From positions 54,365,037 through 54,429,036 of the forward strand of contig NC_090280.1 in assembly GCF_037392515.1 (NCBI RefSeq): a stretch of DNA of 64,000 nt, written 5' to 3'. The notes beneath the pieces are model-generated. The model was not told the origin of the DNA and did not search any database. It saw only the letters and a list, made by a program, of their open reading frames with translations. Numbering within the stretch: the first letter of the stretch is position 1; each line of letters starts with the position of its first letter. This document shows, piece by piece, positions 2,716 to 60,252 of the stretch. The stretch is from Haliotis asinina (taxonomy: Eukaryota). The translations under genes and the position numbers were made by a program.

Positions 2716-5589
2716 TCACAGACTATGTGACTAGGAAAACTCTAGTTGATTATTGCTGTTGTTTTATGCAGGTAAATAAAATGTGCTCTCTCGTATCAGT
2801 CAGACTAGTTTTGAAAAATTGTTGTCATTATTTGAAATGGCATTTTGTCAGGATGACTTGAAAACTTTGTCTTATAAAAGTGAATATCAGTACCTTGCCA
2901 CTGTTTTCATTGCAGGTGATTGTTATCTCAGCAGACTGAGAGCCAAAATTTATGAGGACCAAATAGGGTATTTCATTTACACTTATTCAGGACAAAGATA
3001 TTTTTTCAGTATTTTGTGATCAGTTTGATGATTTAATCAAATTTATTCAAATGTATATGCATAACGTTGATGTGTACTTGTGACTGTCTCATTAATGAAC
3101 TGTATAATTGGCTTAATATGTCATTGTATAATTGGTTTAATTTGTCATTATGTAAAGGTTTGTGCAGTCGAACTAAAACATGTGAAGGTTCTATCATCCA
3201 CAAGGATTTAACAAGGATTTGAAGTTTGTCATTAATATACTGAGGGAAACAAATAAGGGAACACCACTTCATTGGCAGTGTTCCTGTATTCTCATACTTC
3301 CTTCCACAGCACTATTCAAAGCTGGTGATGAACACTGGAAAATGTAAAAGTAATGCTTGAATTGTCCTGCAATCCTTTATTTGTTTCTCTCAGTATATTA
3401 CAAGACACACATGCTCAATGTTACCATTTTCACTGACATAGTAGTCTAGAAGTTAATGTGTCTGCCAGACCTGCTGAAGTTCTGAGTTTGCTTCCCTACA
3501 TGGTTACCATCTGTGAAAAGTCCAATGATATTTCTCGACATTGCAAAGAGAAAACTGTGAGCCCCTGCTCAATAATAAGTGTTATCATTAGATAAATTTG
3601 ACTTTATATGTATTAGGGCGCTTGGATTGACTTCAGGTTACTTGTATTTTATAGAAATATGAACCTGCACATGTAAATCGCAGTTATTTATAAAAAGTCA
3701 ATGGTTAGCAGTTATCTGTTATATCTGTTATAGCAAACCCATTTTCTTTTGTGATTTTTACCATGATTTTAAATGTGCATGTATTTTTATTGATCAATTT
3801 AGTTTTTGCCCATATGACAGTGATAATTTTAAATTGAATACGGTTATAAATACAACTGAATACAAAGTTCTTGGACGTTAAGCTGATACTAAAAAGCGAA
3901 ATGTTCAGTAGAAGTCAGTTACATTCTTAATATGTTTTACCAGTGTGCTAGTTTTGTATGCTATGAACACAATCATTCGTAGTGTATATTGTATATACTT
4001 TTAGTCACTTGTTTTAGCAGTGTCTCAAGAGTCTATATTATGGCTGGATGACATGTTTTATCTCAGTATTTGAAATGTTTCACTTGTAACATATGTGACA
4101 CTTAAATAGATATTTTTATCTGTTATAATATGGGGACATAATCATAACATTGTGCAAACAAAATACACATCAATTAATGCCAGAAAAGTGAACTGGTTGG
4201 TAATATCTGGATTTAGTAAACACAGCAATATGAAACATATTTTCTTAGAATTAGTTTGATGTTTGATGTTTCATTTTTTATAAATAATAATTAGTCTTCC
4301 AAGTCCATCATATGGCCTACATTTTCACTATTTAAACTTAAAGACTACAGTGATTTGTTTTACATGTACTTAATATACTGCGTTTGGTTTCACAGAAGTT
4401 AACATGAGCTAGTCACAAGGCACATACTTCCTGGAGATGTATAACATATATCCAGATCTGTTGTTTTGTTCATTTGTTCAAACAGCTTCCATTGATGTTG
4501 CTGCAATCATGATAGTGTTTGTTGTTAATTGAACACCCAGTGCATGCTTGTGATTTGTTGAAGGATTAAATGCATCTGATGTGTTTTTGTAATTAAATAT
4601 TAGTCATTTGCTTGATTATGTCGCTTGTTAAAGGATTAAATGTAAGCGTTTTGTTTAATGATTAAAGAGGTTAGATACTGTGGTTTGTGCACATACCTTA
4701 TGTGATGGGGTGTGACAGTAGGAGCACGTTATTATGTTATGCATTTATTTCCCTTTATCTTGCTTCATACTTCGTACGTCATGATATTTTGGCCACACAA
4801 GCATTTATCCAGAGGTAAACTTGTGCAAGAGTTATCTCCCCTTATCAAATTTATTTTGGATATGCTGTTTTGATTGGAGATAGTATTGATACCATCTGGT
4901 TGAATATATTTTTGTTTATTTTTGAATATTAGTCTTGTGTGACTTTACTATATGAACATTCCTGTTTAAAAAATCTTCTTATCATTAAACTTTTTTCATT
5001 GATGAATCAAATATTTTAATAGTTGAATGATTATATTCTTGTCTTGTTGAATGATTACATGTGACTTGCTTAATGATTAAATGTAAGCCATTTGTTTGAT
5101 TATTAAATGGTGGAATGATTTAAAACTTGCAATTTATTTTACTTTTTTTAAGCCAAGCAAGCTATATCTTCTCCATACTGGGAGTTGTGATTATTATTGT
5201 CACAAACTGCACACTTGAGGTGACAGCAGCTTCATGAAAGAGACTTGCAACACCAGGACTTGAAAATGGCACTGTGAAATTGCTGATCACAGGCTTTTTA
5301 CAACAAAAAGTATCTGTATTTTGGGATGATTGAAATAGTTTTTTTAGAACATGCATAACATGCATCTGTGTGCACGTTTTGTAGGTCCAGCAGCTGTATT
5401 ATATTCAGGTGAAAATAGTTTTAACAAACATTGGTTATTGGGATCTGATGTTCACAGCCCCTTGGAGTTTGTCCAAACATGGCTTTGAAATCCATTAGTT
5501 GTTTGTAGGTTGCATGACTTCAACCACTTGTTTGCATGGTGAGGAAGAGTTCGAGTGTTGCTTACACCCCAAAAATGTTCACACACCTA

Positions 5590-5935: not shown

Positions 5936-6150
5936 CATGCTTGCCATAAAAGGCGACTGTTAGAGGCGACTAACGGGATTGGATTGTCAGGTTTGCTGAC
6001 TTTGTTGACACATGTCATCGGTTCCCAATTGCGCAGATCGATGCTCATGCTGTTGATCAGTAGATTGTCTGGTCCAGACTATTATTTACAGACCGCCGCC
6101 ATATTGCTGTAATATTGCTGAGTGCGGCGTAAAACTAAACTCACTCACTC
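5935..6150 (+). mobile_element. SINE family B copy fused to the upstream 49-bp head array
   Basis: The sequence ..catgcttgccataaaaggcgact..gttgacacatgtcatcggttcccaattgcgcagatcgatgctcatgctgttgatcag..tttacagaccgccgccatattgctgtaatattgctgagtgcggcgtaaaactaaactcactcactc matches the family consensus. Confidence 0.8.
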
Positions 6151-8341: not shown

Positions 8342-8689
8342 AGTATACGAGCCTGGACCGGAAACAAGTGATCAACATCATGGTCATCGCCGAACGTTAA
8401 GAGGATGCGATGACATGTATCAGCCTAGTCAGAGAGCCTGTCCACCTGACCCCGTTAGTCGCAACTTCCGATAAGCATGGGCTACTGAAGGGCAAGACCT
8501 TCACAGAGCGATCACGTTAGCGCTAACTGGAGCGGGTTCCAGCTCTATAGATCCCAAGGAAGGACATGCATGAGAGGGACCTATACTGACCGTAGTCACA
8601 ATGTATCATCATCGATAGTTATTAAACCCAGTCAGGGAATGTCTTGCAGGCTACACAGACAGAAATCACGTCACGATCCGCCACTGACA

Positions 8690-9720: not shown

Positions 9721-9888
9721 GGCGGTGGGGTAGCCTATTGGTTAAAGCGTTCGCTCGTCACACCGGAGACCCGGGTTCGATTCTCCACATGGGTACAATG
9801 TGTGAAGCCAATTTTCTGGTGTCCCCCGCCGTGATATTGCCCGAATATTGCTAAAAGCGGCGTAAAACTAAACTCACTCACTCACTCT
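9721..9888 (+). mobile_element. SINE family A copy (tRNA-derived head GGGGTAGCCTATTGGTTAAAGCG..GGGTTCGATTC.. plus shared tail ..ATATTGCTAAAAGCGGCGTAAAACTAAACTCACTCACTCA)
   Basis: The head is tRNA-like with A-box and B-box-like motifs (TGGTTAAAGC, GGTTCGATTC) and carries the conserved tail. The same architecture occurs at 12424, 14078, 17318, 34118 and 47712. Confidence 0.8.
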
Positions 9889-11124: not shown

Positions 11125-11272
11125 CTAGAAACAAACAATCCAATATTCCAGCAATATCACACCGGGCTACATCAGAAAAGGGCTTCACATATTGCACCCA
11201 CGTGGGAAATCGAACCCGGGCCCTCGACGATCGTTGTAACCACTAGGCTACCCGACTACCCCCTTTAGCTTT
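11125..11272 (-). mobile_element. SINE family A fragment (head region), minus orientation
   Basis: The reverse complement gives gggtagtcgggtagcctagtggttacaacgatcgtcgagggcccgggttcgatttcccacgtgggtgcaatatgtgaagccc.. Confidence 0.65.
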
Positions 11273-14077: not shown

Positions 14078-14250
14078 ATTTGGGTGGACAGAGCAGCCTT
14101 GCAGTTACAGTGTTCCCTCGTCATGTCAGAGTCCCAGGTTCGATTTCCCACATGGTTACAACTTGTGAAGCCCATTTCTGGTGTTCCCCGCCGTGGTATC
14201 GCATGAATGAAAGCAACAAAAAACCCAACTCCCTCACTCAGTCACTCTTC
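14078..14250 (+). mobile_element. SINE family A copy
   Basis: ..cagagtcccaggttcgatttcccacatggttacaacttgtgaagcccatttctggtgttccccgccgtggtatcgc.. with a degenerate tail ..ctcactcagtcactc. ORF 14080..14307 is SINE-encoded. Confidence 0.7.
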
Positions 14251-14394: not shown

Positions 14395-15027
14395 ATAATC
14401 CACATCAGCAGCAAATTATGGTTCTTCATGATCCATACTCACTGAACACGTGTTCATGATCCCTATCCAACATGGAGCGTTGTAATAAACCATATCCACT
14501 GAGATAGTCGTGGAGCATAATGAACAGTACTCACACTGTACACGTGTTCATGATCCATATCCTACATGAAGCGTTGTAATAAACCATATCCACTGAGATA
14601 GTCGTGGAGCATAATGAACCATACTCACTGAACAAGTGTTCATGATCCATATCCTACATGGAGGGTTGTAATAAACCATATCCACTGAGACAGTCGTGGA
14701 GCATAATGAACCATACTCACTGAACAAGTGTTCATGATCCATATCCTACATGGAGGGTTGTAATAAACCATATCCACTGAGACAGTCGTGGAGCATAATG
14801 AACCATACTCACTGAACAAGTGTTCATGATCCATATCCTACATGGAGGGTTGTAATAAACCATATCCACTGAGACAGTCGTGGAGCATAATGAACCATAT
14901 TCACTGAACACGTGTTCATGATCCATATCCTACATGGAGGGTTGTAATAAACCATATCCACTGAGACAGTCGTGGAGCATAATGAACAGTACTCACTGAA
15001 CAAGTGTTCATGATCCATATAATACAT
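14395..15027. repeat. 92-bp tandem array (~7 units)
   Basis: ORFs 14548, 14640, 14732, 14824 and 14916 sit exactly 92 bp apart and have identical translations. The unit is ..tgttcatgatccatatcctacatggagggttgtaataaaccatatccactgagacagtcgtggagcataatgaaccatactcactgaacaag. Confidence 0.9.
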
Positions 15028-15047
15028 GGGGGGGGGGGGGGGGGGGG
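15028..15047. repeat. Poly-G homopolymer (20 nt) terminating the 92-bp array
   Basis: The G20 run is seen directly. It is unusual in an AT-rich genome and may be a G-quadruplex or polymerase-slippage site. Confidence 0.9.
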
Positions 15048-16227
15048 TGTAATTAACCATATCCCCTGTGATAGTCTTTGGGCGTAATGATCCATATTCT
15101 GTTTGTCACAATCAATATCTTGACTCTCCACCCTTATAGGTATTTATTATGATCCCAATCTGTGATGGCTGGTTTCCATTTAGTCTGTTTCACAGTCCCT
15201 GAACTGCATTATTTTTCCTGATGTTTTTTTCCTTATGTCTTCACTGGAATGTTAAGGCTGTAAACATCAGCATATGAAGCAAATTTGTATTTCCACAGGT
15301 TCTGAATCTCCTATCTCACTGGACTACCAATGAAAGATGTCGACCATGACAGCAGTTCACTGGCATGTCTAGGTCTAACTTCCGACTCAGCAAAAAAAAC
15401 CCACAGGACTGATGTAAACATGTTTACTTTTTCAATATTACCAGCATAGGAAAATAGGGGACAATGGGGATATAAATACAAAATAACCAGGCTGTGACAA
15501 AAATATATGCACACAAGTTGTCGAGACTGGTGACACTATTGTAACGATGTGACTTCAGAAGGTCTATAAATGATATAAATAGTTATAACAATAACAATGA
15601 GCTTGGTCACAAAACACATCTACATGTCACAAGGTGACCTTCACATCACTTCAAACACTAATAAATCATAGTTACCATAAAAAATGCAGCATACTTGTGA
15701 CTACACTTTATTAGTGTATTCATAAACAATGGATGGAACATTTACATAATTATATAGCAAAGGTTAGGTGTTGGCCAGTATGACAATCCCAACAGTATTG
15801 ATTCAGATCCAAACTGAGCCATAAATTATGGAGCATTATCCACACAGTACATCTAATGATATACATGAGTCTTGGATAGGCATTGGTTAATACATTTAGG
15901 CAATGTTCACCTGCTGGAGGGGCACAAATGGTAACATTCATTATAATCAATAAAGTTGCAGTCCATAAAATATCCATATGTTCACATGCGCATACACCTT
16001 TCCATAAGTACACTTATCCAACCAACACAGAACATGAGAAATCATTCATAATTCTTTGTTCAACTGAAATAAAACAAATAAATAATTATCACTAAAACAC
16101 AATATTGGGCTTCTATGGAAAGACAATATAACTTCATCACAACCATCAAATGGGTACAACATCACTGCCCATGTATAAAGGAACAAAACAAAAGAGGCAT
16201 GTCACAGTTTTGGTCCTGTTTCTATTA

Positions 16228-16372
16228 CAAAGTGAGGGAGTGAATTTAGTTTTATGTCGCATTTAGCAACATTCCAGCAATATCATGGCAGGCACATAAG
16301 AAATGGGCTTCACACATTGTACCCATGGGGAATCAAACTCGGGTCACAGATGGTAACCTTGCGATACTCTTA
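16228..16372 (-). mobile_element. SINE family A fragment (tail plus part of head), minus orientation
   Basis: The reverse complement gives ..cccatgggtacaatgtgtgaagcccatttcttatgtgcctgccatgatattgctggaatgttgctaaatgcgacataaaactaaattcactccc. Confidence 0.65.
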
Positions 16373-17924: not shown

Positions 17925-18390
17925 AGCCTGTTTATTATTATGTTACTAGCATTAACATACTCAATGAAACGCTGATCATTATCAAAACATCATACCAACT
18001 GTGTAAGGTAAGAGGAGAATTCTTGTCCTAATAATAAAAAAGTTGTTTAACAAATTATCATGAAAATATTTACACAGTTCACTGTTCAGTACGAGGAAGG
18101 AGTACAGAGAAGGCACTGCCAGGTGTTCAAGGAGCATGTGCACACATGCTGAAAAAGTTTTTCATTCATTAACCTGTGCTGCGCTGTCTCCATGCTTTCT
18201 TGCACACCTGGCTGTCCCTTTCGCTGTACTCCTCCCTTGTAACAAACAGTGAACAGTGTCAATATTTTAATGATAGTTAGTTAAACAACTTTTTTATTTT
18301 AAGGAACAATATTCCGCAAAAACCAGAGTTGGTATGATGTTCGTATTATGATCAGCATTTCACTGAGTATGTTATGTTTATTAGTTTTCA
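17925..18390. repeat. Long imperfect foldback (palindrome) element, two nested inverted-repeat pairs
   Basis: The outer arms 17930-17985 and 18330-18385 (cattaacatactcaatgaaacgctgatcattatcaaaacatcataccaac versus gttggtatgatgttcgtattatgatcagcatttcactgagtatgtta) are reverse complements. The inner arms 18038-18107 and 18223-18298 are also complementary (..cactgttcagtacgaggaaggagtacag / ctgtactcctcccttgtaacaaacagtgaacagtg). Confidence 0.7.
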
Positions 18391-20935: not shown

Positions 20936-21639
20936 CGAGTTCACTTTCCTTATCAGTGATTGTAAACCTCTGTGTCTTTGGCGCTAACGCCATCCACAGC
21001 AGTACTACACGAAATTAAACGGATGAGAGGGTCGGACTGTCAGCTTAACCTAACCTTACAGCTTTGACATCATTCATGACATCAACCATTGGTTTGGCAC
21101 AGAGAAAACCTTAATATATTTGTGATATCAATGATTACTTCAGAGAGGGATGTGTATATAAGCTATTGCATTTGCATGCAAAGAAATAGAAAAAGAATTA
21201 TGTGTGGGTCGTTACCAGCTCAATGCATATTCTGTCTCACAGTTCCTGAACCACATTATTTTCGCTTCTGTTTGGCAAAGTCCAAATCACAGAGAGGCCT
21301 CCTTTTCAGTTGCAAAACACATGCACGCACGCACGCCACCTAAACGTTATTTTATTGTTTTAACATACCGGTATATGCAATACGTCCTCGATATTATAAC
21401 AGTACAACGTTATCCTTGATGTGCATATTTTCTTCACGTGATCTCGATACTTCATGTAAAATGCGTAAACTGTTGTTTGCCCCTAGTTTTTAGGACCGTT
21501 GTATTGCATCGCATGAAAGAACTTGTCAGAGGTTAATGAGAGATGATTTTTACAATTAGTTGTTTAGGGTATAGTATTCAATGTGGGCTTTAATATAGAC
21601 CAATAAAACGAGCCTTCTGTTTAACTCCGCGGCAGCAAC

Positions 21640-41289: not shown

Positions 41290-42715
41290 ACCAAGACTGA
41301 ATTGTTTACATGGAAGTCTGTAATCAAAAATAGTTCACCATTTCAAGAACTGTCAACGTGTTCATGGAACAGAGAAAATAATGCATCATAAAAACCTGTA
41401 AATAGCAAAAGGCACCACTTTGAGGTCTGCCACACATAGCTAACAAGTTACACTGACAGATATTAAGACGTTTTTGAGTTCTGCTCTGGAAATGAAACAC
41501 ACCTCTCACTTTTGAGACTATATCTGAAACATGTCCATGGAAACCAAGAAAATAATAAATCACAAAAACCTGTAAATAGCAAAAGGCACCACTATAGGTT
41601 CAGATTGATGTATCTACAAAGTTTTGCAGAAAAACATTTTATGGTTTTTGAGTTCTGCTCCAGAAACAAAGCCCATCCCTCCATTTTGAGACTTTTGAGA
41701 CTGTCCGAAACGTTTCCGTGGAAACCAAGAAAATAATAAATAACAAAAACCTGTACATAGGAAAAGGCACCGCTTCAGCTTCTGACTGATATATCTACCA
41801 AGTTTTGCAGAAAAATATTGAACGGCTTTTGAGTTCTGCTCCAGAAACGAAACACACCTCTCACTTTTGAGACTGTGTCCGAAACGTTTCCATGGAAACC
41901 GAGAAAATAATCAATCACAAAAACCTGTATATAGCAAATGGCACCACTTTAGGTTCTGATTGATATATCTAGCACATTTTGCTGAAAAATATTGAACGGT
42001 TTTTGAGGTCTGCTCCGGAAACGAAGTCCATCCCTCCATTTTGAGACTAAGTCTGAATTTCCATAGAAACGGAGAAAATAATAAATCACAAAAACATGTA
42101 AATAGCAAAAGGCACCACTTTGGGGTCTGCCACACATATCTATTAAGTAACACTGACAGATATTAAGAAGTTTTTGAGTTCTGCTCTGTAAACAAAACAG
42201 ATCTCACTTTTGAGACTATGTCTGAAACATTTCCATGGAAACCTAGAAAATAATAAATCACAAAAACCTGTACATAGGAAAGGGCACCACTTCAGCTTCT
42301 GACTGATATATCTACCAAGTTTTGCAGAAAAATATTAAACGGCTTTTGGGTTCTGCTCCAGAAACGAAACACACCTCTCACTTCTGAGACTATGTCCAAA
42401 ACGTTTCCATGGAAACCGAGAAAATAATCAATCACAAAAACCTGTATATAGCAAAAGGCACCATTTTAGGTTCTGACTGATATATCTACCAAGTTTTGGG
42501 GAAAAATATATAACGGTTTTTGAGTTCTGCCCCGGAAACGAAGCCCACACCACCATACGACTAACACCAAAATGTTCCATGGAAAAACAAAAAAATTATA
42601 AATGCCAAAAATCTGTAAATAGCAAAAGGCACAACCATAGTCTGAGATTACTACTTCTATCACATTTGGTCTAAAAAGTATTGAACGGTTTCTGAGTTAT
42701 GCTCCGGAAACAAAA
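41290..42715. repeat. Satellite-like tandem array, ~175-180-bp unit x8 (~1.4 kb)
   Basis: The landmark cacaaaaacctgta(a/c/t)ata(g)caaaaggcacca recurs at 41382, 41561, 41741, 41921, 42093, 42259, 42432 and 42609, with the conserved block ..gttctgctccggaaacgaaacacacctctcacttttgagactatgtc(c/t)gaaacgtttccatggaaacc(g/a)agaaaataat(c/a)aatcacaaaaacctgta. Confidence 0.85.
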
Positions 42716-51764: not shown

Positions 51765-51905
51765 CTATAAATAATCAAATCTGCACAAGTCTATCCAGTG
51801 ATTGATAGCATGAGTATCAGTATGTTTGACTGGAATTTTATGACATGCATCAAATAAGTCAGCAAACCTGACCACTCTATCCCCTTAGTTGCCTCTTGTG
51901 AGAAA
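51765..51905 (-). mobile_element. SINE family B fragment in an ABCB8 intron, minus orientation
   Basis: ..caatattcaagctataaataatcaaatctgcacaagtctatccagtgattgatagcatgagtatcag..gtcagcaaacctgaccactctatcccc.. is the reverse complement of the family-B body. Confidence 0.6.
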
Positions 51906-52036: not shown

Positions 52037-52225
52037 CTTGACCCAGTGCAAGTTTCCTGCCAACTCTGTAACTTTTGTCAATCTCAGCCCCATACTCGTC
52101 TATAGCCTTACGCTCCCCAACAAACATTCGGACAGTGCGGAGACTGGACAACGCCTCTTCGGCTTGAGTTCCAGCATCAGCTAACCGATCTTGGAAGTCC
52201 TTTCGCAACTTCTTCATGTACTTTC
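52037..52225 (-). CDS. ABCB8: ABCB8-like exon J (intracellular loop 2 / x-loop region)
   Basis: The acceptor is ttttatcatacag|GA (phase 1) and the donor CAA G|gtaggt. It reads (G)KYMKKLRKDFQDRLADAGTQAEEALSSLRTVRMFVGERKAIDEYGAEIDKSYRVGRKLALGQ, compared with human [47 protein letters not shown]... The frame is that of ORF 52029..52268. Confidence 0.85.
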
Positions 52226-52290
52226 CTGTATGATAAAACAATGCCGATATTACCATTCCTACATACACACCCTGTGGTGTCTTTGGGTAT

Positions 52291-52610
52291 CATGTGTATG
52301 TAGCAGGGCGTGGAGTCATCCCACAGATGACATCCTTACCTTGTCAGCTTGCTGACGGGGTTAACCTCTTTGGTCATGTGGACAAGGCGTCCGACTTCGG
52401 ATCAGAGGGTCCGTCATTCAAATCCCAGCACGGGCGTTGGGCGCCAATGTAGCGGCCACAAAATTTCCGAGTCCCGTGCTGGGATTCGAACGACGGACCC
52501 TCTGATCCGAAGTCGGACGCCTTGTCCACATGACCAAAGAGGTTAACCCCGTCAGCAAGCTGACAAGGTAAGGATGTCATCTGTGGGATGACTCCACGCC
52601 CTGCTACATG
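52291..52610. repeat. ~320-bp near-perfect palindrome (foldback) with ~145-bp arms and a ~35-bp spacer; the arms contain a tRNA T-arm-like box (GGGATTCGAACGACGG)
   Basis: The left arm 52291-52435 and right arm 52471-52610 are exact reverse complements. The exceptions are two positions where the right arm has CG (gggattcgaacgacgg) and the left arm has TG/CA (tcattcaaatccc). The centre is cgggcgttgggcgccaatgtagcggccacaaaatttccgag. Confidence 0.85.
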
Positions 52611-53025
52611 TATAATCAGTTTAACAAGAGTTGATAAAGTTTGAAACGGAGTGGCGTATTAAGAATGTCAAAACTGTACTGAAAAGTGTTGACAGGTTTG
52701 GTATGAAATTCAATTTCTATTATCATCAAAACTAATTCTTTTAACATTTCAGCTTTCAAATTCCACTTCTGCAAACATTTCATGTTTGTACACAATACAT
52801 GCCCAACCCGTCACTGACAGAGAGGTTAGTGATGTCATATGATGGTGATGTCACAGTAATTGATAATGATGTCACAGTTGTCTTCTAAAGCATCAAGTGA
52901 TCCAATTGCAACATCTCTCAATATGAACAAAGATGCTTGTTTCCAGTGATTAAGTGATCCATTGGACACCCATCCCCAACCAAGCCCTGCCCAACTTAAC
53001 TTTACTCTCAGTCAGTTGCACTTAC

Positions 53026-54084: not shown

Positions 54085-54243
54085 AGATCCGAACCCATGA
54101 AGGTCTGGGATAGAATAGGCCTTTAGCACACCATGCTTGCCATAAAAGGCAACTACGCTTGTCGTTAGAGGCGACTAACAGAATCAGGTCGTCAGGTTTG
54201 CTGACTTGGTTGACACATGTCATTGGTTCCCACATGCACAGAT
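54085..54243 (+). mobile_element. SINE family B copy, 5' portion, interrupted by the DIRS-like insertion
   Basis: ..ggtctgggatagaataggcctttagcacaccatgcttgccataaaaggcaactacgcttgtcgttagaggcgactaacagaatcaggtcgtcaggtttgctgacttggttgacacatgtcattggttcccacatgcacag then breaks. The consensus continuation (..atcgatgctcatgctgttgatcactgg..) resumes at 60137. Confidence 0.7.
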
Positions 54244-54819
54244 TTATTAAAATCTAAATATTTTAGATATTTAAATACTTACCTTACCATAGGTCTTATG
54301 CATATTACCTCAAGCTTCGCTAGAAGAGATCAGACAGTCGTTGATTCGCCATTCCCTGGATGGCTACCTCATGTAATATACGAATGTAGTCACGGAAGTG
54401 ACGTGATCTCCCCTCTCGCGCGAGAGCGCAGAATCCAAAATTCACTTTTACCGCCAACCGGAAGGTCTGAAGAGTCCAAAGTGGGGAGGAGCATCCAGCG
54501 TTGGGAGGGAGTCACCGCCCTATGGTAAGGTAAGTATTTAAATATCTAAAATATTTAGATTTTAATAAATTTTTAACTTACCTTACCATAGGTCTTATGC
54601 ATATGGCTTCGACAGATGGATGGTGGTGTGGACTCCGGAGGACCATCCCTCAGCAAACAGTGCACATGCATCAGGAGAACTTGGGAAACCAATGCCAACG
54701 GTCTCAGGATAACACCTGGAGCAGGGCAAAGAGTAACCCAATAGTACTCCAAAGAAAAAACGACGCACCCTGAGGGTGAGGTTAATCTTAAGACCAACGG
54801 TAAGTAACAGCATTATTAC

Positions 54820-56439
54820 CTAATGGGCGGACGATCGGGTAAGTTGCTGAGCAACTACCAGTGGACCAAATGACTGTAACCCCTCCACATCTTCAACTGC
54901 CAGGTCCCTCAAGTAGTGGGAAGCGAAGACAGTTGATGATTTCCAGAAACAGCCCTCCATGATCTGCGCTACCGTGCAATTTCGATGAAGGGCCATTGTA
55001 GACGCCAAGGCCCTGATCTCGTGCGGGTTATTTGCTACCGGATGAGGCAGGAGCTTGTCGTCGTAGGCAGCCAGGATTGTCGATCTGAGCCAAAGGGCAA
55101 TCGTGTTCCTGTTTACCTCTCCTTTGCAGGTCGACGCAAATGGGATGAATAGTCTTTTGCGGGACCGTCTCCTAGAGGCTGACCTTTTAATGTATCATCT
55201 CAGAGCTCTGACCGGACATAGCAGTTCCTCCTCCAAGTCATGATGACCAAGGATCGTAGACAAAGGAGGGATGGAAAATAACCTGTTGGGCTGCCTGGGA
55301 AGCGGGTTCTTAGCCACAAAGTCCCAGAGCAGACCCAAATGGACTTGTCCATGCCTTGACTGTTCAAAGTGGATCTGTGTGACGTCAAGAGCATGGATCT
55401 CACTGACTCTAGCCGCTGTCGCCAATGCTAGTAGGAAAGCCGTCTTCTTGGATAGGTGTTCAAAAGAGGCTTCCTCTAACGGCTCATACGGCGGTCCTCT
55501 AAGATGTTGTAGAACGACATTAAGATCCCAGGCTAGAGGACGAAACTTGGCCTTCTGGTCTTCCAGCTTGAAAGCTTTGAGAAGCGCAATAAGTTCCGGT
55601 ACCTTGGAGATCTGTTTATCTGACTTGATCACAAGGACAGAATTCAATGCTGACAGATAGGTGCCTAGGGTACTGCCTCAGAGATGTCTAAAGTTCCGTA
55701 GAAAGAGAACTTTGACACAAACTGAGGGGATGCTGCCATAGGATCTTGAGATCTTTGTGCGCAAAAATTCTCGAACGAGCGCCATTTGTCGTCATATAGG
55801 GATCGGGTAGAAACTCTATGCGCGCCAGCTATAACGCTCGCCACGCGCATGGAGTAGCCCTTAGCTATTAACGCCCTCTGCAAATGACCCATGCGTGAAG
55901 ATGGAATCGCAGTGGATCCGGATGCAGTTGTCGACTGTGTGGATGCCGAAGTAGATGCAACCACTCTGGAAGTTTGTATGGTTCTCCGCTTGCGAGCCGT
56001 TGAAGGTCGGGGAACCATGGCCTGGCTGGCCAACAAGGTGCGACCAAAAGCAGTCACAGGTTCTGAGTCTGCTTGACCTTAGCGACCACTTCTGAGAGAA
56101 AGGGCTGGTGGTGGAAACGTGTAAGCATCCAGACCTTCCCACGACAGGGACATCGTGTCGATTGCTCACGCCACCAGGTCCATAAAGTGACTGAGTGGAA
56201 ACCCTGTGCTCCCGGGCGATAAACTTCGCCACTTGAGATGAGTACCCCTTGGCCCTCAAGACTTTCACAGATGGTCCAGGCACAAAGATGAAACCGCGAC
56301 GGAACCAGGTGCAGTGTCCAATTGTGAGGATGGTACAACAATTGGTCCCACTCTGGAAGCCGACTATTTGAAACGTCTCTCGACACAACATATTCTCCGT
56401 TGGTGATAGACGTAGGGGGTGAGATAAGGCGTCTGCCAT
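54820..56439 (-). pseudogene. Tyrosine recombinase (YR, phage-integrase-like) coding remnants of the DIRS-like element, split by frameshifts
   Basis: ORF 55861..56439 and ORF 55665..56057 carry a duplicated N-terminal motif (..KGYSSQVAKFIAREHRVSTQSLYG.. / ..KGYSMRVASVIAGAHRVSTRSLYDDKWRSFENFCAQRSQDPM.., the ST..Y..W..F..WC SAM-like N-domain of DIRS/Crypton YRs). ORF 55195..55647 carries box I (LSKKTAFLLALATAARVSEIHALDV). ORF 54820..55008 carries box II (MALHRNCTVAQIMEGCFWKSSTVFASHYLRD, with the H-x-x-R and catalytic Tyr context). Confidence 0.6.
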
Positions 56440-56556
56440 GAAGATGCAGGTTCCTGGTATGTGAGATACTTTATTTTGGAGGATCAGACTAGACCACGTC
56501 GTAGGGTAGAAACGACAAGTGTAGTAGAGGTCGAGGCCTCCTTGACCCTTGTTTAC

Positions 56557-56823
56557 CTAGAAAGCTACTATTGAGTTGACCGTATGGATCATCAGTAGCT
56601 TGTCTCTCGGTGCTGTCAACCAATGATAGACATGCATCTCCGCTTTCATCTGCAACTGGGTGATGTGAAGAGATTGAGCTCCACTCTTCCAGAATCCTGC
56701 TGCAACCTCCTTGACTAGATAGGCACTCAATCCTTGGAGAGAAGTGTCTACCTGAAGATGGTTGTTGAATGACGGCTCTAATATGTAACTTCCTACGTAA
56801 ACATTGACCAGCGAGCCTACCAC
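56557..56823 (-). pseudogene. RNase H-like remnant of the DIRS-like element
   Basis: ORF 56557..56823 reads ..FNNHLQVDTSLQGLSAYLVKEVAAGFWKS.. (VDTS..GLSAY resembles the RNase H TDAS..G.GA motif). The surrounding frames are broken. Confidence 0.35.
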
Positions 56824-58794
56824 AGGTGTGGTGTCAAGATGTCCAATGTCGATGTCCTAAGGTGACATGAGCAAATCGAGTAGACATTATCACTGACATA
56901 GTGATAACGGACAGAGTAGAGCTTGCTTTTAACATCGCCTTGAACTTCGACCCCCGAACCTGGGACGGCGATGTGATGAATCAAATCCCGCGGAGTTAGT
57001 TAGTCATCCAAGCTGACTTAACAGCCTGATAATGAAGTCCACCTCTCTCAAGATAATCTTGTATGCCGTAAAGATGCGTCATTCTTCGACTTCAGAATAA
57101 CCACGCTGTTCATTATGAATGTGTTGACATTTCAAGGAAGTCTATTTATAGCTGGCTGTCTGTCCGATCAGAAACTGCCATACATCGCTGCACGCCTCCT
57201 GATAGGCAGCGTTGAGACTACTGTTAGAGGATCTCTATGCCGACTAGAGAAATCCAATGCTGCTGTAGACTGCTAGTCTAGAGTGTAAACGACATCTTTC
57301 CATCGTAAATGACTAAGTCACTGCTGACAGCTTCCTTACACTAGAATAATAACAACACATTCTGCGCAGGGCATTGTCCCTCGATGACCAATCAGATCGT
57401 AGATGTAACGCCCCCTGGGATCCTTCGCAAGGTGTTGTCTCTCGGGGACCAATCAAAATGTAGACGTGACGTCACCGGTGTAGCAGGTAACTGATCACCA
57501 TGAAATCTTTTAAACGGTGATACCCTGCTAGCCTGTATGCTTTACAGTAACCATGCTGTTTGGCGAGCACGTGTCTAAATGAGTAAAGCGCGCAAAAACC
57601 CTTCCGCCGCTTGAAACTGATGTAGACAAATTGCTTCCCATGTATATGTGTTGGAATTTTCCCCGAAGATAAATGCTGCCCTCTCTTGTAATAAGAGGTG
57701 TAGTTAGGCGTGGCACTTTGTAGTTGTCTCGAAAAATCTTCGTGACAAAATGCGTAAAGCACGTGAAAGAAAACTTTCTCCGCTTGAAGTATATGTAGAC
57801 AAATTGTAACGTAAGGATCTTCGAGGATGCAGCCAGTCCCTCCAAAGGACACCCAGTCTCACGCCTACCAGCATAGGAATATCTGGTACGGTGATCAATC
57901 CTCGAGGCGTTGTCTTCAGACAAGTCCATCACCGCCGCCGAGGTAGCTGACACCAGCGCAGACAACGGCTTAAGCATCCGCTTGAGTTCAGTCTCAATGG
58001 TCACCCGCTTAGAATCCTGCACTCTGTAAGAGAGCTGCTAGGAGCCCAGTAACCGCTACATAGATTCAACCAAGACAGCCACGCTGTCCGCGAAAACCAG
58101 GCTGTGTATCTTGTAATCTGACTTCTTGGATTTACACGCTTTGAAATTCGGATTAGATGACAATTTTTCAAAGACCGCATCTAATACAGCCACGGCGTCC
58201 GCCACCATAGGATCAGGCGGGACGAGTAGCTCCGGCGATAAATGAAGTGCTGCAGGGTTGCTGGAATGAGCCGAAGGTGAAGGGCAGTACGGTAACCTGT
58301 CAGCAATCCCACTCGAAGACGACTGATAAGGGTAGTTAAGTGCCCTCACCATCGCCGTCGCCTCCTGCCTCCTCGTCGAAGTCCGGGCCAAAAACCTGTT
58401 CTTCCAGGTCCTCCCAGGAAACGGAATTCGAATCACGCCGCAGTGTAGGAGACGAAGTCCATGCATGAGCAGCAGATTCCTTGGACGGGATCCAAGGTGG
58501 GTCCGGCGACCGCAAACGTCGAGTTCTAGAGGAGTGTCGAGGTGATATGGGCTGGGAGCGCAAGTAACGTCTTCACCTGGTAGTAAAGCGAGAGTCCTCA
58601 TTCAAAGGGCGTCGCGGGGACCGAGAGCGCCGACAAAGACTACTGTGGAGGGTACAGGATCGCCGACTCCCTGGGAACCTGGAGCGCGATCTGCGCCGAG
58701 AGCGAACTGCCTCCAAGCGCCGAGCGCGCCCTTCATCCAACTGTCGTTGTAAAACCTCTTCCCTGGACAACGTATGCAACACCCTGGGTATACG

Positions 58795-59035
58795 GTAAGG
58801 CGCAGGCGCTGGCGCTGGCATAGGGTCCGGCGTCGGCATAGGCGCTGGCGTAGGCATGGGCACTAGCGCAAGCACAGCCTCTGGTGCTGGCGTAGACATA
58901 GGCACTGGCGTAGGCATAGGCATAGGCGCAAACACAGGTGCTAGCGTAGGCATAGGCGTTGGCGTAAGCAAAGGCGCTGGTGTCGGCATAGGCGCTGGTG
59001 TCGAGATGTCGAGACGCTGGCATCGCAGCAGCACC
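58795..59035. repeat. 18-bp-period tandem repeat (ggcgctggcgtaggcata-like) inside the DIRS-like element; encodes P/A/M/T-rich peptide repeats on the minus strand
   Basis: The units ggcgctggcgctggcatagg, gtccggcgtcggcatagg, cgctggcgtaggcatggg, cactagcgcaagcacagc .. are seen directly. ORFs 58573..59034, 58733..59083 and 58856..59326 are overlapping-frame artefacts of this array. Confidence 0.8.
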
Positions 59036-60136
59036 GGGCGTCAGGAGAGAGCGCAGGAACCTCTGGACTTCCGGATGAGACAAGGCATCTGGATGAAAAC
59101 CACGATGGAATCCGAGCGAGGTGGTTCCGGGGACAAACGTACAGGCGTCACAGACGAACGCCCCATCCCAGACGTCGGCACAGGCGCTGAAGGCGGTTGT
59201 AAGTCAGGGTCGTCCGGCAGAGATCCCAACGACAACGCTGGAAATGGCAACCTTCTCTTCCGCTGTGAAAAAAAAAAAAAATTTCCTCTTAGCCGCAATA
59301 AAAGTCTTGAAATCCGCCACCAATAACGCCTCGCAGTACTGGCAGTGTCCGTCAAAAGAGCAGGCTAGAGACGCACAATCCGGGCACCAAGGGTGGGGAT
59401 ATTCGCCGATTCCTGCCCCTAGCAGATAGTGCAAAACTGGGGAGACATACACAGTTAAGTGCAACAAACAAACATAATGCGTTGAAACCAACGCTAGGAG
59501 GTAGAAAAAACACCCCTATACCAGAAATGCAGCACCAACGTACCCCCACTGTAAAGTAGGCACGCCCGTAAGCTCGTGACAGCGAAGGCCAAACAACCAA
59601 AATGGCTGTCTGCGTACATCGCAACGTGGCACGAAAAAAACCCATATAAATGCTGTGGAACATGGGCAAAAATACTAATCGACATGGAAAATCACATGGA
59701 GGAAGAAAAAACCAGCAAGATATAATACCCCCACGGACGCCATGCCGCACTCACACACGACACGGGCGAACCCACCCCGAAGTGAGAGAAAAAACAACAC
59801 GAGGTAGCAAAGTAAGTGCAGTTAAAAAATAACTTACCTTAACACGCACACCTAAGGGATACAAACCATACCTACCCGTGAGGAAATAAATTTATTGAAC
59901 CACAAAGTAGCTAAACTAAGCGAACCAAACACGTCCGAACAGACGAACGCTAGAGGTAAAAGTGAATTTTGGATTCTGCGCTCTCGCACGAGAGGGGAGA
60001 TCACGTCACTTCCGTGACTACATTCGTAGATTACATGAGGTAGCCATCCAGGGAATGGCGAATCAACGACTGTCTGATCTCTTCTAGCGAAGCTTGAGGT
60101 AATATGCATAAGACCTATGGTAAGGTAAGTTAAAAA

Positions 60137-60252
60137 TTGATACTTATGCTGTTGATCACTGGTCTATCTGGTCCAGAATCGATTATTTACAGATCGCCAC
60201 CATATAACTGGAATATTGCTGAGTGCGGCGTAAAACTAAACTCACTGACTCA
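60137..60252 (+). mobile_element. SINE family B copy, 3' portion (continuation of 54085-54243)
   Basis: ttgatacttatgctgttgatcactggtctatctggtccagaatcgattatttacagatcgccaccatataactggaatattgctgagtgcggcgtaaaactaaactcactgactcactg. Confidence 0.7.

Follow-up and report, generated by a model that had tools for sequence, protein, structure and literature searches.

Helenus elements (TRIMp3) are miniature retrotransposons with terminal repeats (TRIMs), 311-1263 bp long, with tRNA-derived sequence in their long terminal repeats (LTRs), a primer-binding site (PBS), a polypurine tract (PPT) and, in animals, 4-bp target-site duplications (TSDs) (PMC10886601). A tRNA-Lys PBS is found in some bivalve families, which have Gypsy partners, and within Mollusca the elements have been recorded only in pteriomorph bivalves (PMC10886601). 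The present analysis concerns a hairpin in a 64,000-nucleotide stretch of the genome of the gastropod Haliotis asinina (contig NC_090280.1, positions 54,365,037 to 54,429,036 of the forward strand), which is referred to below as the window, and in which the hairpin lies inside an intron of an ABCB8-like gene. The hairpin was found to be made up of a complete LTR, the start of a PBS, and a second, inverted and incomplete LTR, all belonging to a repeat family that is very probably a TRIM of the Helenus type. It is read here, with a probability of about 0.6, as an aberrant palindromic copy of that TRIM, integrated as a palindrome in one event and altered afterwards by two CpG transitions. Hairpin positions are those of the window, and LTR positions are given as nt 1-161, numbered 5' to 3' on the minus strand of the window for the long arm.

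The whole hairpin measures 312 bp and consists of two inverted-repeat arms of 137 nt each, at 52298-52434 on the plus strand and at 52473-52609, separated by a spacer of 38 nt (52435-52472). The preliminary description of this DNA had reported a near-perfect hairpin of 320 bp with arms of about 145 bp; the hairpin itself is real, but both sizes were overestimated. Complementarity extends over 135 of the 137 positions, and the 137th "pair" is just the A and the T of two TGTA flank copies. The two mismatches (52416/52491 and 52420/52487) are the only ones, the left arm reading GTCATTCAAATC and the reverse complement of the right arm GTCGTTCGAATC, so that CpA stands against CpG at both; the earlier statement that the arms differ only at CG versus TG/CA sites was thus borne out. 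There are nine CpGs in the right arm and seven in the left. The chance that two random substitutions would both land on CpG positions is (18/136)(17/135) = 0.017, and lower if both must be transitions. No second copy of the arm was found within the 64 kb.

Relatives of the hairpin were sought by translating it and searching protein collections, using a 94-aa open reading frame (ORF) of the window as query, and by a full HMMER pass; the family sample is small and was reached through translated ORFs. The translated hairpin matched one protein of Haliotis cracherodii that carries the arm, in translated form, at its C-terminus, and the HMMER pass added seven ORFs, which without exception lie on contigs from Logan run DRR299178. 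DNA was fetched for all of these loci, which are designated L001 (H. cracherodii, JAJLRC010000010.1) and L003-L009 (DRR299178 contigs). Comparison with a composite unit using BLAST and MAFFT yielded ten further repeat pieces, nine of them substantial, at 72-93% identity, and the window copy proved 92% identical to the H. cracherodii copies. Across the eight loci, the nine other copies stand alone or lie in direct orientation, and none (0/9) is palindromic. A miniature inverted-repeat (MITE) or foldback DNA-transposon family was rejected on the ground of this small sample, as was the possibility, raised with the preliminary description, of an old MITE family with many copies of the same palindrome: the arm is multi-copy, but the palindrome is not. 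A Ginger-type or other DNA-transposon MITE was dropped both on the TSD, which is CCGG/CCGT in Ginger1, and because the other copies are not inverted. An exact scan with a conserved 22-mer gave no match in the metagenome, prokaryote-genome and viral collections. A 20-mer match to a soil metagenome contig (L002, Ga0307475_10098672, positions 2156-2178) comprised only 23 exact nucleotides, GGATGTCATCTGTGGGATGACT, which form a subterminal hairpin motif of the LTR, and was taken as chance. Similarity between the left flank of the palindrome and L001, which could have indicated that the family extends further on that side, was not significant (p about 0.19).

As to its nature, the repeat is an LTR of 161 bp (TGTAGC...GCTACA), which in family copies begins with TGTAGCAGGG and ends, 161 nt on, with GGCCGCTACA. 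End-to-end matches of 161 nt to the long-arm LTR of the window were obtained for L001 (3' LTR), L003, L004 and L005. L001 holds a full element at 20995-21398, in which one LTR shortened by deletions to 137 nt and one of 161 nt, about 93% identical to each other, lie in direct orientation on either side of an internal region of 106 nt. This internal region starts with a T followed by TGGCACCCAGCGTGGGGC and ends in a purine tract, GACGGGGGAGCA|TGAAGC; the element is 404 bp long, or about 430 bp without its deletions, and is bounded by a perfect TSD (CGTA/CGTA). The same LTR-internal-LTR layout was found in L009, with a degraded purine tract (GACATCGGAATA), and L003 retains a 161-nt LTR, then a T, then a degraded PBS, the single T after the 5' LTR being common to L001, L003 and L009. 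L004 is a 161-bp solo LTR at 3812-3972 with a perfect TSD (CTAG/CTAG), and the older copies L006-L008 showed no clear TSD. The consensus PBS 18-mer, TGGCGCCCAACGTGGGGC, is letter for letter the PBS printed for tRNA-Lys1,2 in two retrovirus papers (PMC8775094, PMC1084362); the match is 16/18 in L001 and 12/12 in the window copy, which holds only the first 12 nt. A normal family element therefore comprises an LTR, a T, a tRNA-Lys1,2 PBS, about 85 nt, a purine tract and a second LTR, about 430 bp in all, with a 4-bp TSD.

Because TG...CA termini, a tRNA PBS, a purine tract, solo LTRs and constant 4-bp TSDs occur together, the family was assigned to the TRIMs, and we consider its placement in the Helenus type well supported. 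It shares with Helenus two short LTRs, a PBS, a PPT, the lack of coding capacity and, probably, a tRNA-like LTR segment, and its length (404-430 bp), 4-bp TSDs and tRNA-Lys PBS all fall in the published ranges (PMC10886601). It differs in that its host is a gastropod, in that its tRNA-like part is degenerate, tRNA-Arg-like and recognised by no tRNA predictor, and in the palindromic form of the window copy, an architecture that has not been described for Helenus. By analogy with Helenus, RNA polymerase III may transcribe the family from its LTR, and a Gypsy partner may mobilise it. Bivalve and plant TRIMs, including Cassandra, share the miniature LTR-PBS-PPT-LTR plan and solo LTRs with TSDs (PMC6934838, PMC10886601), whereas classic TRIMs have no segment derived from a small RNA, Cassandra carries a 5S-derived one, and plant TRIMs have 5-bp TSDs (PMC10886601). 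The family, which is found in abalone-like gastropods, would extend the Helenus/TRIMp3 type to a gastropod lineage, outside the bivalves.

The preliminary description had suggested that the arm derives from a tRNA-related short interspersed element (SINE). The arm does contain a tRNA-like stretch that includes a T-loop box, GTTCGAATCC, but the parent is the LTR of a TRIM. The SINE reading was rejected since the tRNA-like part starts only at nt 81, the repeat ends in GCTACA without a tail, the TSD is a constant 4 bp and a tRNA PBS follows the repeat. Mollusc SINEs headed by tRNA-Arg (MESC and related; PMC4758252) resemble the family in their tRNA-Arg-derived segment and their presence in Haliotis, and differ in having a 5' tRNA head, a core, a simple-repeat tail and variable TSDs. 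Such a SINE may be the source of the tRNA-like LTR part, as has been proposed for Helenus generally. A Penelope-like insertion, with an inverted 5'-truncated copy and a partial tandem, was likewise rejected when more copies showed the LTR-PBS-PPT-LTR plan and 4-bp TSDs. Penelope-like insertions that contain an inverted 5'-truncated copy (PMC8557442) are comparable in producing an inverted pair in one retrotransposition, and in their partial tandems, but the present family is set apart by its LTRs, its tRNA PBS, its TSDs of constant 4-bp length and the lack of a hammerhead, and the apparent "partial tandem" in L001 is simply LTR-internal-LTR. Searches of the window and L001 against Rfam gave no hammerhead ribozyme at E <= 10 and no match above chance to a hepatitis delta virus (HDV)-like ribozyme or a miRNA, at either the gathering threshold or E <= 10.

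The tRNA-like segment occupies LTR nt 81-128, which is 52481-52528 on the minus strand in the long arm, with the box-B-like motif CGTTCGAATCC, and 52379-52426 on the plus strand in the short arm, where box B has decayed to CATTCAAATCC. Compared with tRNA sequences, it showed 39/48 gapless identity to tRNA-Arg-TCG, a score reached in 0/2000 shuffles, and the other tRNAs scored far lower. Box A reads TGGTC...TGG, with one mismatch against TRGCY..YGG. Box B is GGTTCGAATCC in copy A of H. cracherodii and CGTTC or CATTC in the window arms, GGTTC being found only in the H. cracherodii copies. Tracts with tRNA-like boxes in mollusc repeats are thus not always SINEs, the boxes lying here in the LTR of a TRIM, which bears on repeat annotation and tRNA prediction in abalone. 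Downstream of the tRNA-like part, at LTR nt ~146-149 of the window copy (52460-52463), there is a TTTT run (AAAA on the plus strand), which is also present in L003 and L004 and not in the H. cracherodii copies; it could serve as an RNA polymerase III terminator.

Two further observations were made at the H. cracherodii locus. In the annotation, the element supplies the C-terminal coding part of an "uncharacterized protein" (P0134, residues ~310-393); this is a case either of exonisation of a transposon or of faulty annotation. Some 7 kb away, at L001 28607-28679 on the minus strand, there is a gene for tRNA-Asp(GTC).

Read on the minus strand, the window copy consists of LTR nt 1-161, a T, PBS nt 1-12 and the reverse complement of LTR nt 136-1. 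The complete LTR (52448-52608, minus strand, TGTAGCAGGG...GTGGCCGCTACA) spans the long arm and 25 nt of the "loop". It is followed by the single T (52447, minus strand), which stands in the same place in the relatives, and by the truncated PBS (52435-52446, minus strand, TGGCGCCCAACG; 12/12 against TGGCGCCCAACGTGGGGC). What was taken for a "loop" thus consists of the terminal 25 nt of the LTR, the T and the 12 PBS nucleotides, and it continues the long arm without a break. At the inverted junction (...TGGCGCCCAACGCCCGTGCTGGG...; junction 30-mer GGCGCCCAACGCCCGTGCTGGGATT) the PBS breaks off, where family copies go on with TGGGGC, and the inverted partial LTR begins; the latter forms the short arm (52299-52434, plus strand, LTR nt 1-136), starts at the LTR 5' terminus TGTAGCAGGG and pairs with 52473-52608. 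The purine tract is absent, as is the internal domain past the 12 nt of PBS. Both outer ends of the hairpin are LTR 5' termini (TGTAGC... on the left, ...GCTACA on the right), and both are flanked by TGTA, at 52295-52298 and, as a direct repeat, at 52609-52612. The empty site would read GGGTATCATG-TGTA-TAATCAG. A 4-bp flank match has a chance of 1/256, the termini having been fixed independently from L001 and L004. The foldback duplication that the preliminary description had proposed does not agree with this anatomy, in which the "loop" is a native LTR end with PBS, the arms stop at LTR nt 1 and the flanks are direct TGTA copies.

The following order of events would account for the structure. 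In the particle of an autonomous partner, probably of Gypsy type, reverse transcription would have yielded a DNA resembling plus-strand strong-stop DNA, comprising the LTR and part of the PBS. Plus-strand strong-stop DNA contains an entire LTR and, copied behind it, the first part of the primer tRNA; because the long arm has the same composition, reverse transcription is the likely stage at which the junction was made. This product would then have been joined to a second, inverted and incomplete LTR, through either a strand switch of the reverse transcriptase onto a second nascent plus strand or end joining of two truncated cDNAs. Integrase could have used two U3-type ends, since the LTR ends share TGTAGC.GG, and would have inserted the palindrome in a single event and produced the 4-bp duplication. 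Later, two CpGs of the short arm would have become CpA via deamination of 5-methylcytosine on the opposite strand. That an already formed palindrome was integrated is suggested by the fact that the arms end at LTR nt 1 and are flanked by direct TGTA, without an inverted flank, and integration of an already palindromic cDNA in a single step is accordingly held to be somewhat better supported than not. More tentatively, the locus may be a germ-line fossil of a failed reverse transcription, integrated by the integrase of the partner via two U3-type ends. In its parts, a whole LTR and a primer start, the long arm corresponds exactly to plus-strand strong-stop DNA in the scheme outlined in PMC10886601; the window copy differs in that only 12/18 PBS nucleotides are present, in its fusion to an inverted LTR and in its integration in the germ line with a TSD. 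Twin priming as known from long interspersed elements (LINEs) was rejected, as the palindrome would then have the RNA 5' end in its middle, opposite to the structure found.

Several points weigh against this account. Only one palindromic locus is known, and no published U3/U3 palindromic TRIM insertion was found in the literature searched. The autonomous partner was not found, and no genome was searched for it. Snap-back self-priming is not supported, there being no microhomology at the junction (...CCCAACG|CCCGTGC...) and no way for the 3' end of the long arm to pair beside LTR nt 136. A self-folded single strand offers one duplex end only, so that a second strand or molecule must be assumed. 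With regard to the tRNA-like part, neither ARAGORN nor Rfam called a tRNA in the element (window and L001).

The alternative closest to the preliminary description, with the parent element corrected, is a rearrangement after insertion, in which a normal TRIM, or a 5' LTR with a remnant of PBS, was converted into a palindrome by a foldback template switch or by inversion and deletion. Short palindromes are well known to arise by template-switch foldback, near-identical adjacent arms are what a local inverted duplication would be expected to leave, and junction microhomology gives no evidence either way. A foldback, however, predicts inverted flanks (TACA...TGTA), whereas the flanks are direct TGTA copies and the short arm stops at LTR nt 1; for a normal insertion to be inverted into this form, breaks would be required precisely where the element ends and where LTR and PPT meet, together with a deletion; and each arm contains native sequence or boundaries missing from the other, in the case of the long arm LTR nt 137-161 and the PBS. 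We regard such a rearrangement as unlikely. A good deal less probable still is that this young LTR family inserted twice, independently and in opposite orientations, at nearly the same spot, with loss of the sequence between the insertions. LTR elements often nest, and a likeness of about 99% between copies of a young subfamily does not require local duplication, yet in that case the outer flanks should not match as TGTA/TGTA, and there is no remaining second TSD, LTR 3' end or internal region and no other family copy in the 64 kb. An artefact of assembly or consensus, through chimeric foldback reads or base-calling errors at methylated CpG, is given slightly less weight again: palindromes are hard to assemble, and some long-read chemistries make systematic errors at modified bases, but an artefactual foldback would not end at transposon termini, carry a TSD or place a native LTR-PBS in its loop, and the element stands even if both mismatches are errors.

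The least probable of the explanations considered is that the hairpin is a selected RNA locus, serving as an intronic source of small interfering RNA against the TRIM, as a substrate for ADAR or as a regulator of splicing. In its favour, the gene-strand RNA has a predicted folding energy of -308.9 kcal/mol, where shuffled sequences gave -109.8 +/- 6.3 (z = -31.7), and the duplex lies near a 3' splice site. In gene-sense RNA both mismatch sites form G.U pairs, so that the stem is uninterrupted and a perfect duplex of 136 bp results. The corresponding DNA fold was -190.5 against -48.0 for shuffles (z = -37.7), and these folds are in line with the earlier suggestion that a strong hairpin or cruciform is possible. 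On the other side, no evidence of conservation is available, Rfam gave no match beyond chance, and the structure is explained by its origin and is young enough to need no selection. The hairpin is most likely a neutral passenger, of which the 136-bp pre-mRNA duplex, 72 nt upstream of the 3' splice site, and a DNA cruciform can form as by-products; processing by ADAR or Dicer, small RNA production and effects on splicing or DNA fragility are possible. If the proposed origin is correct, LTR integrases can insert U3/U3 palindromic cDNAs, and TRIMs would have a route by which to seed hairpin-RNA loci in genes; the window copy also bears on which ends an LTR integrase accepts and on the failure modes of reverse transcription.

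With regard to age, the two arms share six substitutions relative to both H. cracherodii copies, which indicates that they are sister copies from one recent source, in agreement with the preliminary description. The two sites of difference (52416 and 52420, LTR nt 118 and 122) read CA in the short arm, on the plus strand, and CG in the long arm (52491, 52487). At nt 118 both H. cracherodii copies have G; at nt 122 one has G and the other C. From this comparison the CG of the long arm is most likely the ancestral state, and both changes are then G-to-A replacements (LTR sense) at CpGs of the short arm. Like the members of an LTR pair, the arms presumably started out identical, and since there are no differences at ~118 non-CpG positions per arm, against two CpG transitions, the insertion is taken to be young; the two LTRs of the L001 element, for comparison, are about 93% identical. 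The arm pair thus provides an internal clock, in which 2 CpG transitions against 0/~118 non-CpG changes per arm give a read-out of CpG hypermutability in a gene body. The CpG observed/expected ratio of the window is 0.54, with TpG/CpA in excess (1.33), a composition that fits a CpG-methylated genome. Given this depletion, the two changes are explained most economically if 5-methylcytosine was deaminated in a gene body that is methylated; the preliminary description had named the same process, and of its claim the CpG type of both differences was observed, while methylation as their cause is what we infer.

Changes made in the cDNA before integration, by APOBEC-type deamination of minus-strand DNA or by errors of the reverse transcriptase, are an improbable alternative for these differences. 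Cytidine deaminases such as vertebrate APOBEC3 leave a G-to-A polarity on retroelement cDNA, and both changes here are G to A in the LTR sense and in one arm. Against this alternative, both fall at CpG, which accounts for ~24% of the G positions of the arm and gives a chance of ~6% for two; their dinucleotide contexts differ (GT and GA); and the CpG depletion of the window is strong and typical of methylation-driven decay. A comparison based on two sites has almost no power.

The ABCB8-like host gene is on the minus strand. Its intron containing the element is 800 nt long (52226-53025), with the donor TATG|GTAAGT at 53025 and the acceptor ATACAG|G at 52226, and the downstream exon (52037-52225, minus strand, GKYMKKLRKDFQDRLADAGTQAEEALSSLRTVRMFVGERKAIDEYGAEIDKSYRVGRKLALGQG) has an open frame, an AG|G acceptor and a G|GTAGGT donor. 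The hairpin lies 72-73 nt upstream of the 3' splice site; a distance of 60 bp from the ABCB8 exon had been given before, which was correct as to the intronic position near the exon and too short as to the distance. The complete LTR of the long arm has the same orientation as the gene. When the host exons were concatenated, ABC_membrane homologues were recovered, the best matches having 80% identity in the nucleotide-binding domain (NBD) and 66% in the transmembrane domain (TMD), with no close ABCB8 orthologue among them.

Other repeats were noted in the window. Much of the next intron upstream is filled by a DIRS-like retrotransposon (54242-60141), with inverted terminal repeats of 176 nt (54277-54452 and 59955-60130) that are 99% complementary, and with an ORF at 55198-55677 on the minus strand that gave a weak Phage_integrase (tyrosine recombinase) match (E = 6.8e-4). 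At its left end is a perfect inverted repeat of 52 nt (54242-54293 and 54519-54570) with 225 nt between the arms, and inside it, at 58798-59008, is a GC-rich tandem repeat with an 18-nt period and ORFs on either strand that are rich in Ala/Gly/Val or Pro/Thr/Met. SINE-like repeats are present in many copies, often as inverted pairs at 75-86% identity, at 2007-2654, 5966-6025, 8403-8462, 9770-9814, 11145-11220, 14133-14208, 16233-16330, 17953-18374, 51840-51896 and 54167-54223; one type has a tRNA-like CCCGGGTTCGATTC box. They share the tail ...TAAAACTAAACTCACTCACTCA, and the same tail motif occurs in L003 (DRR299178). Finally, there are tandem arrays at 14551-15143 and 41300-42700, one with a 92-nt period, about 6 copies and identical 65-aa ORFs, and the second with a period of ~130 nt.

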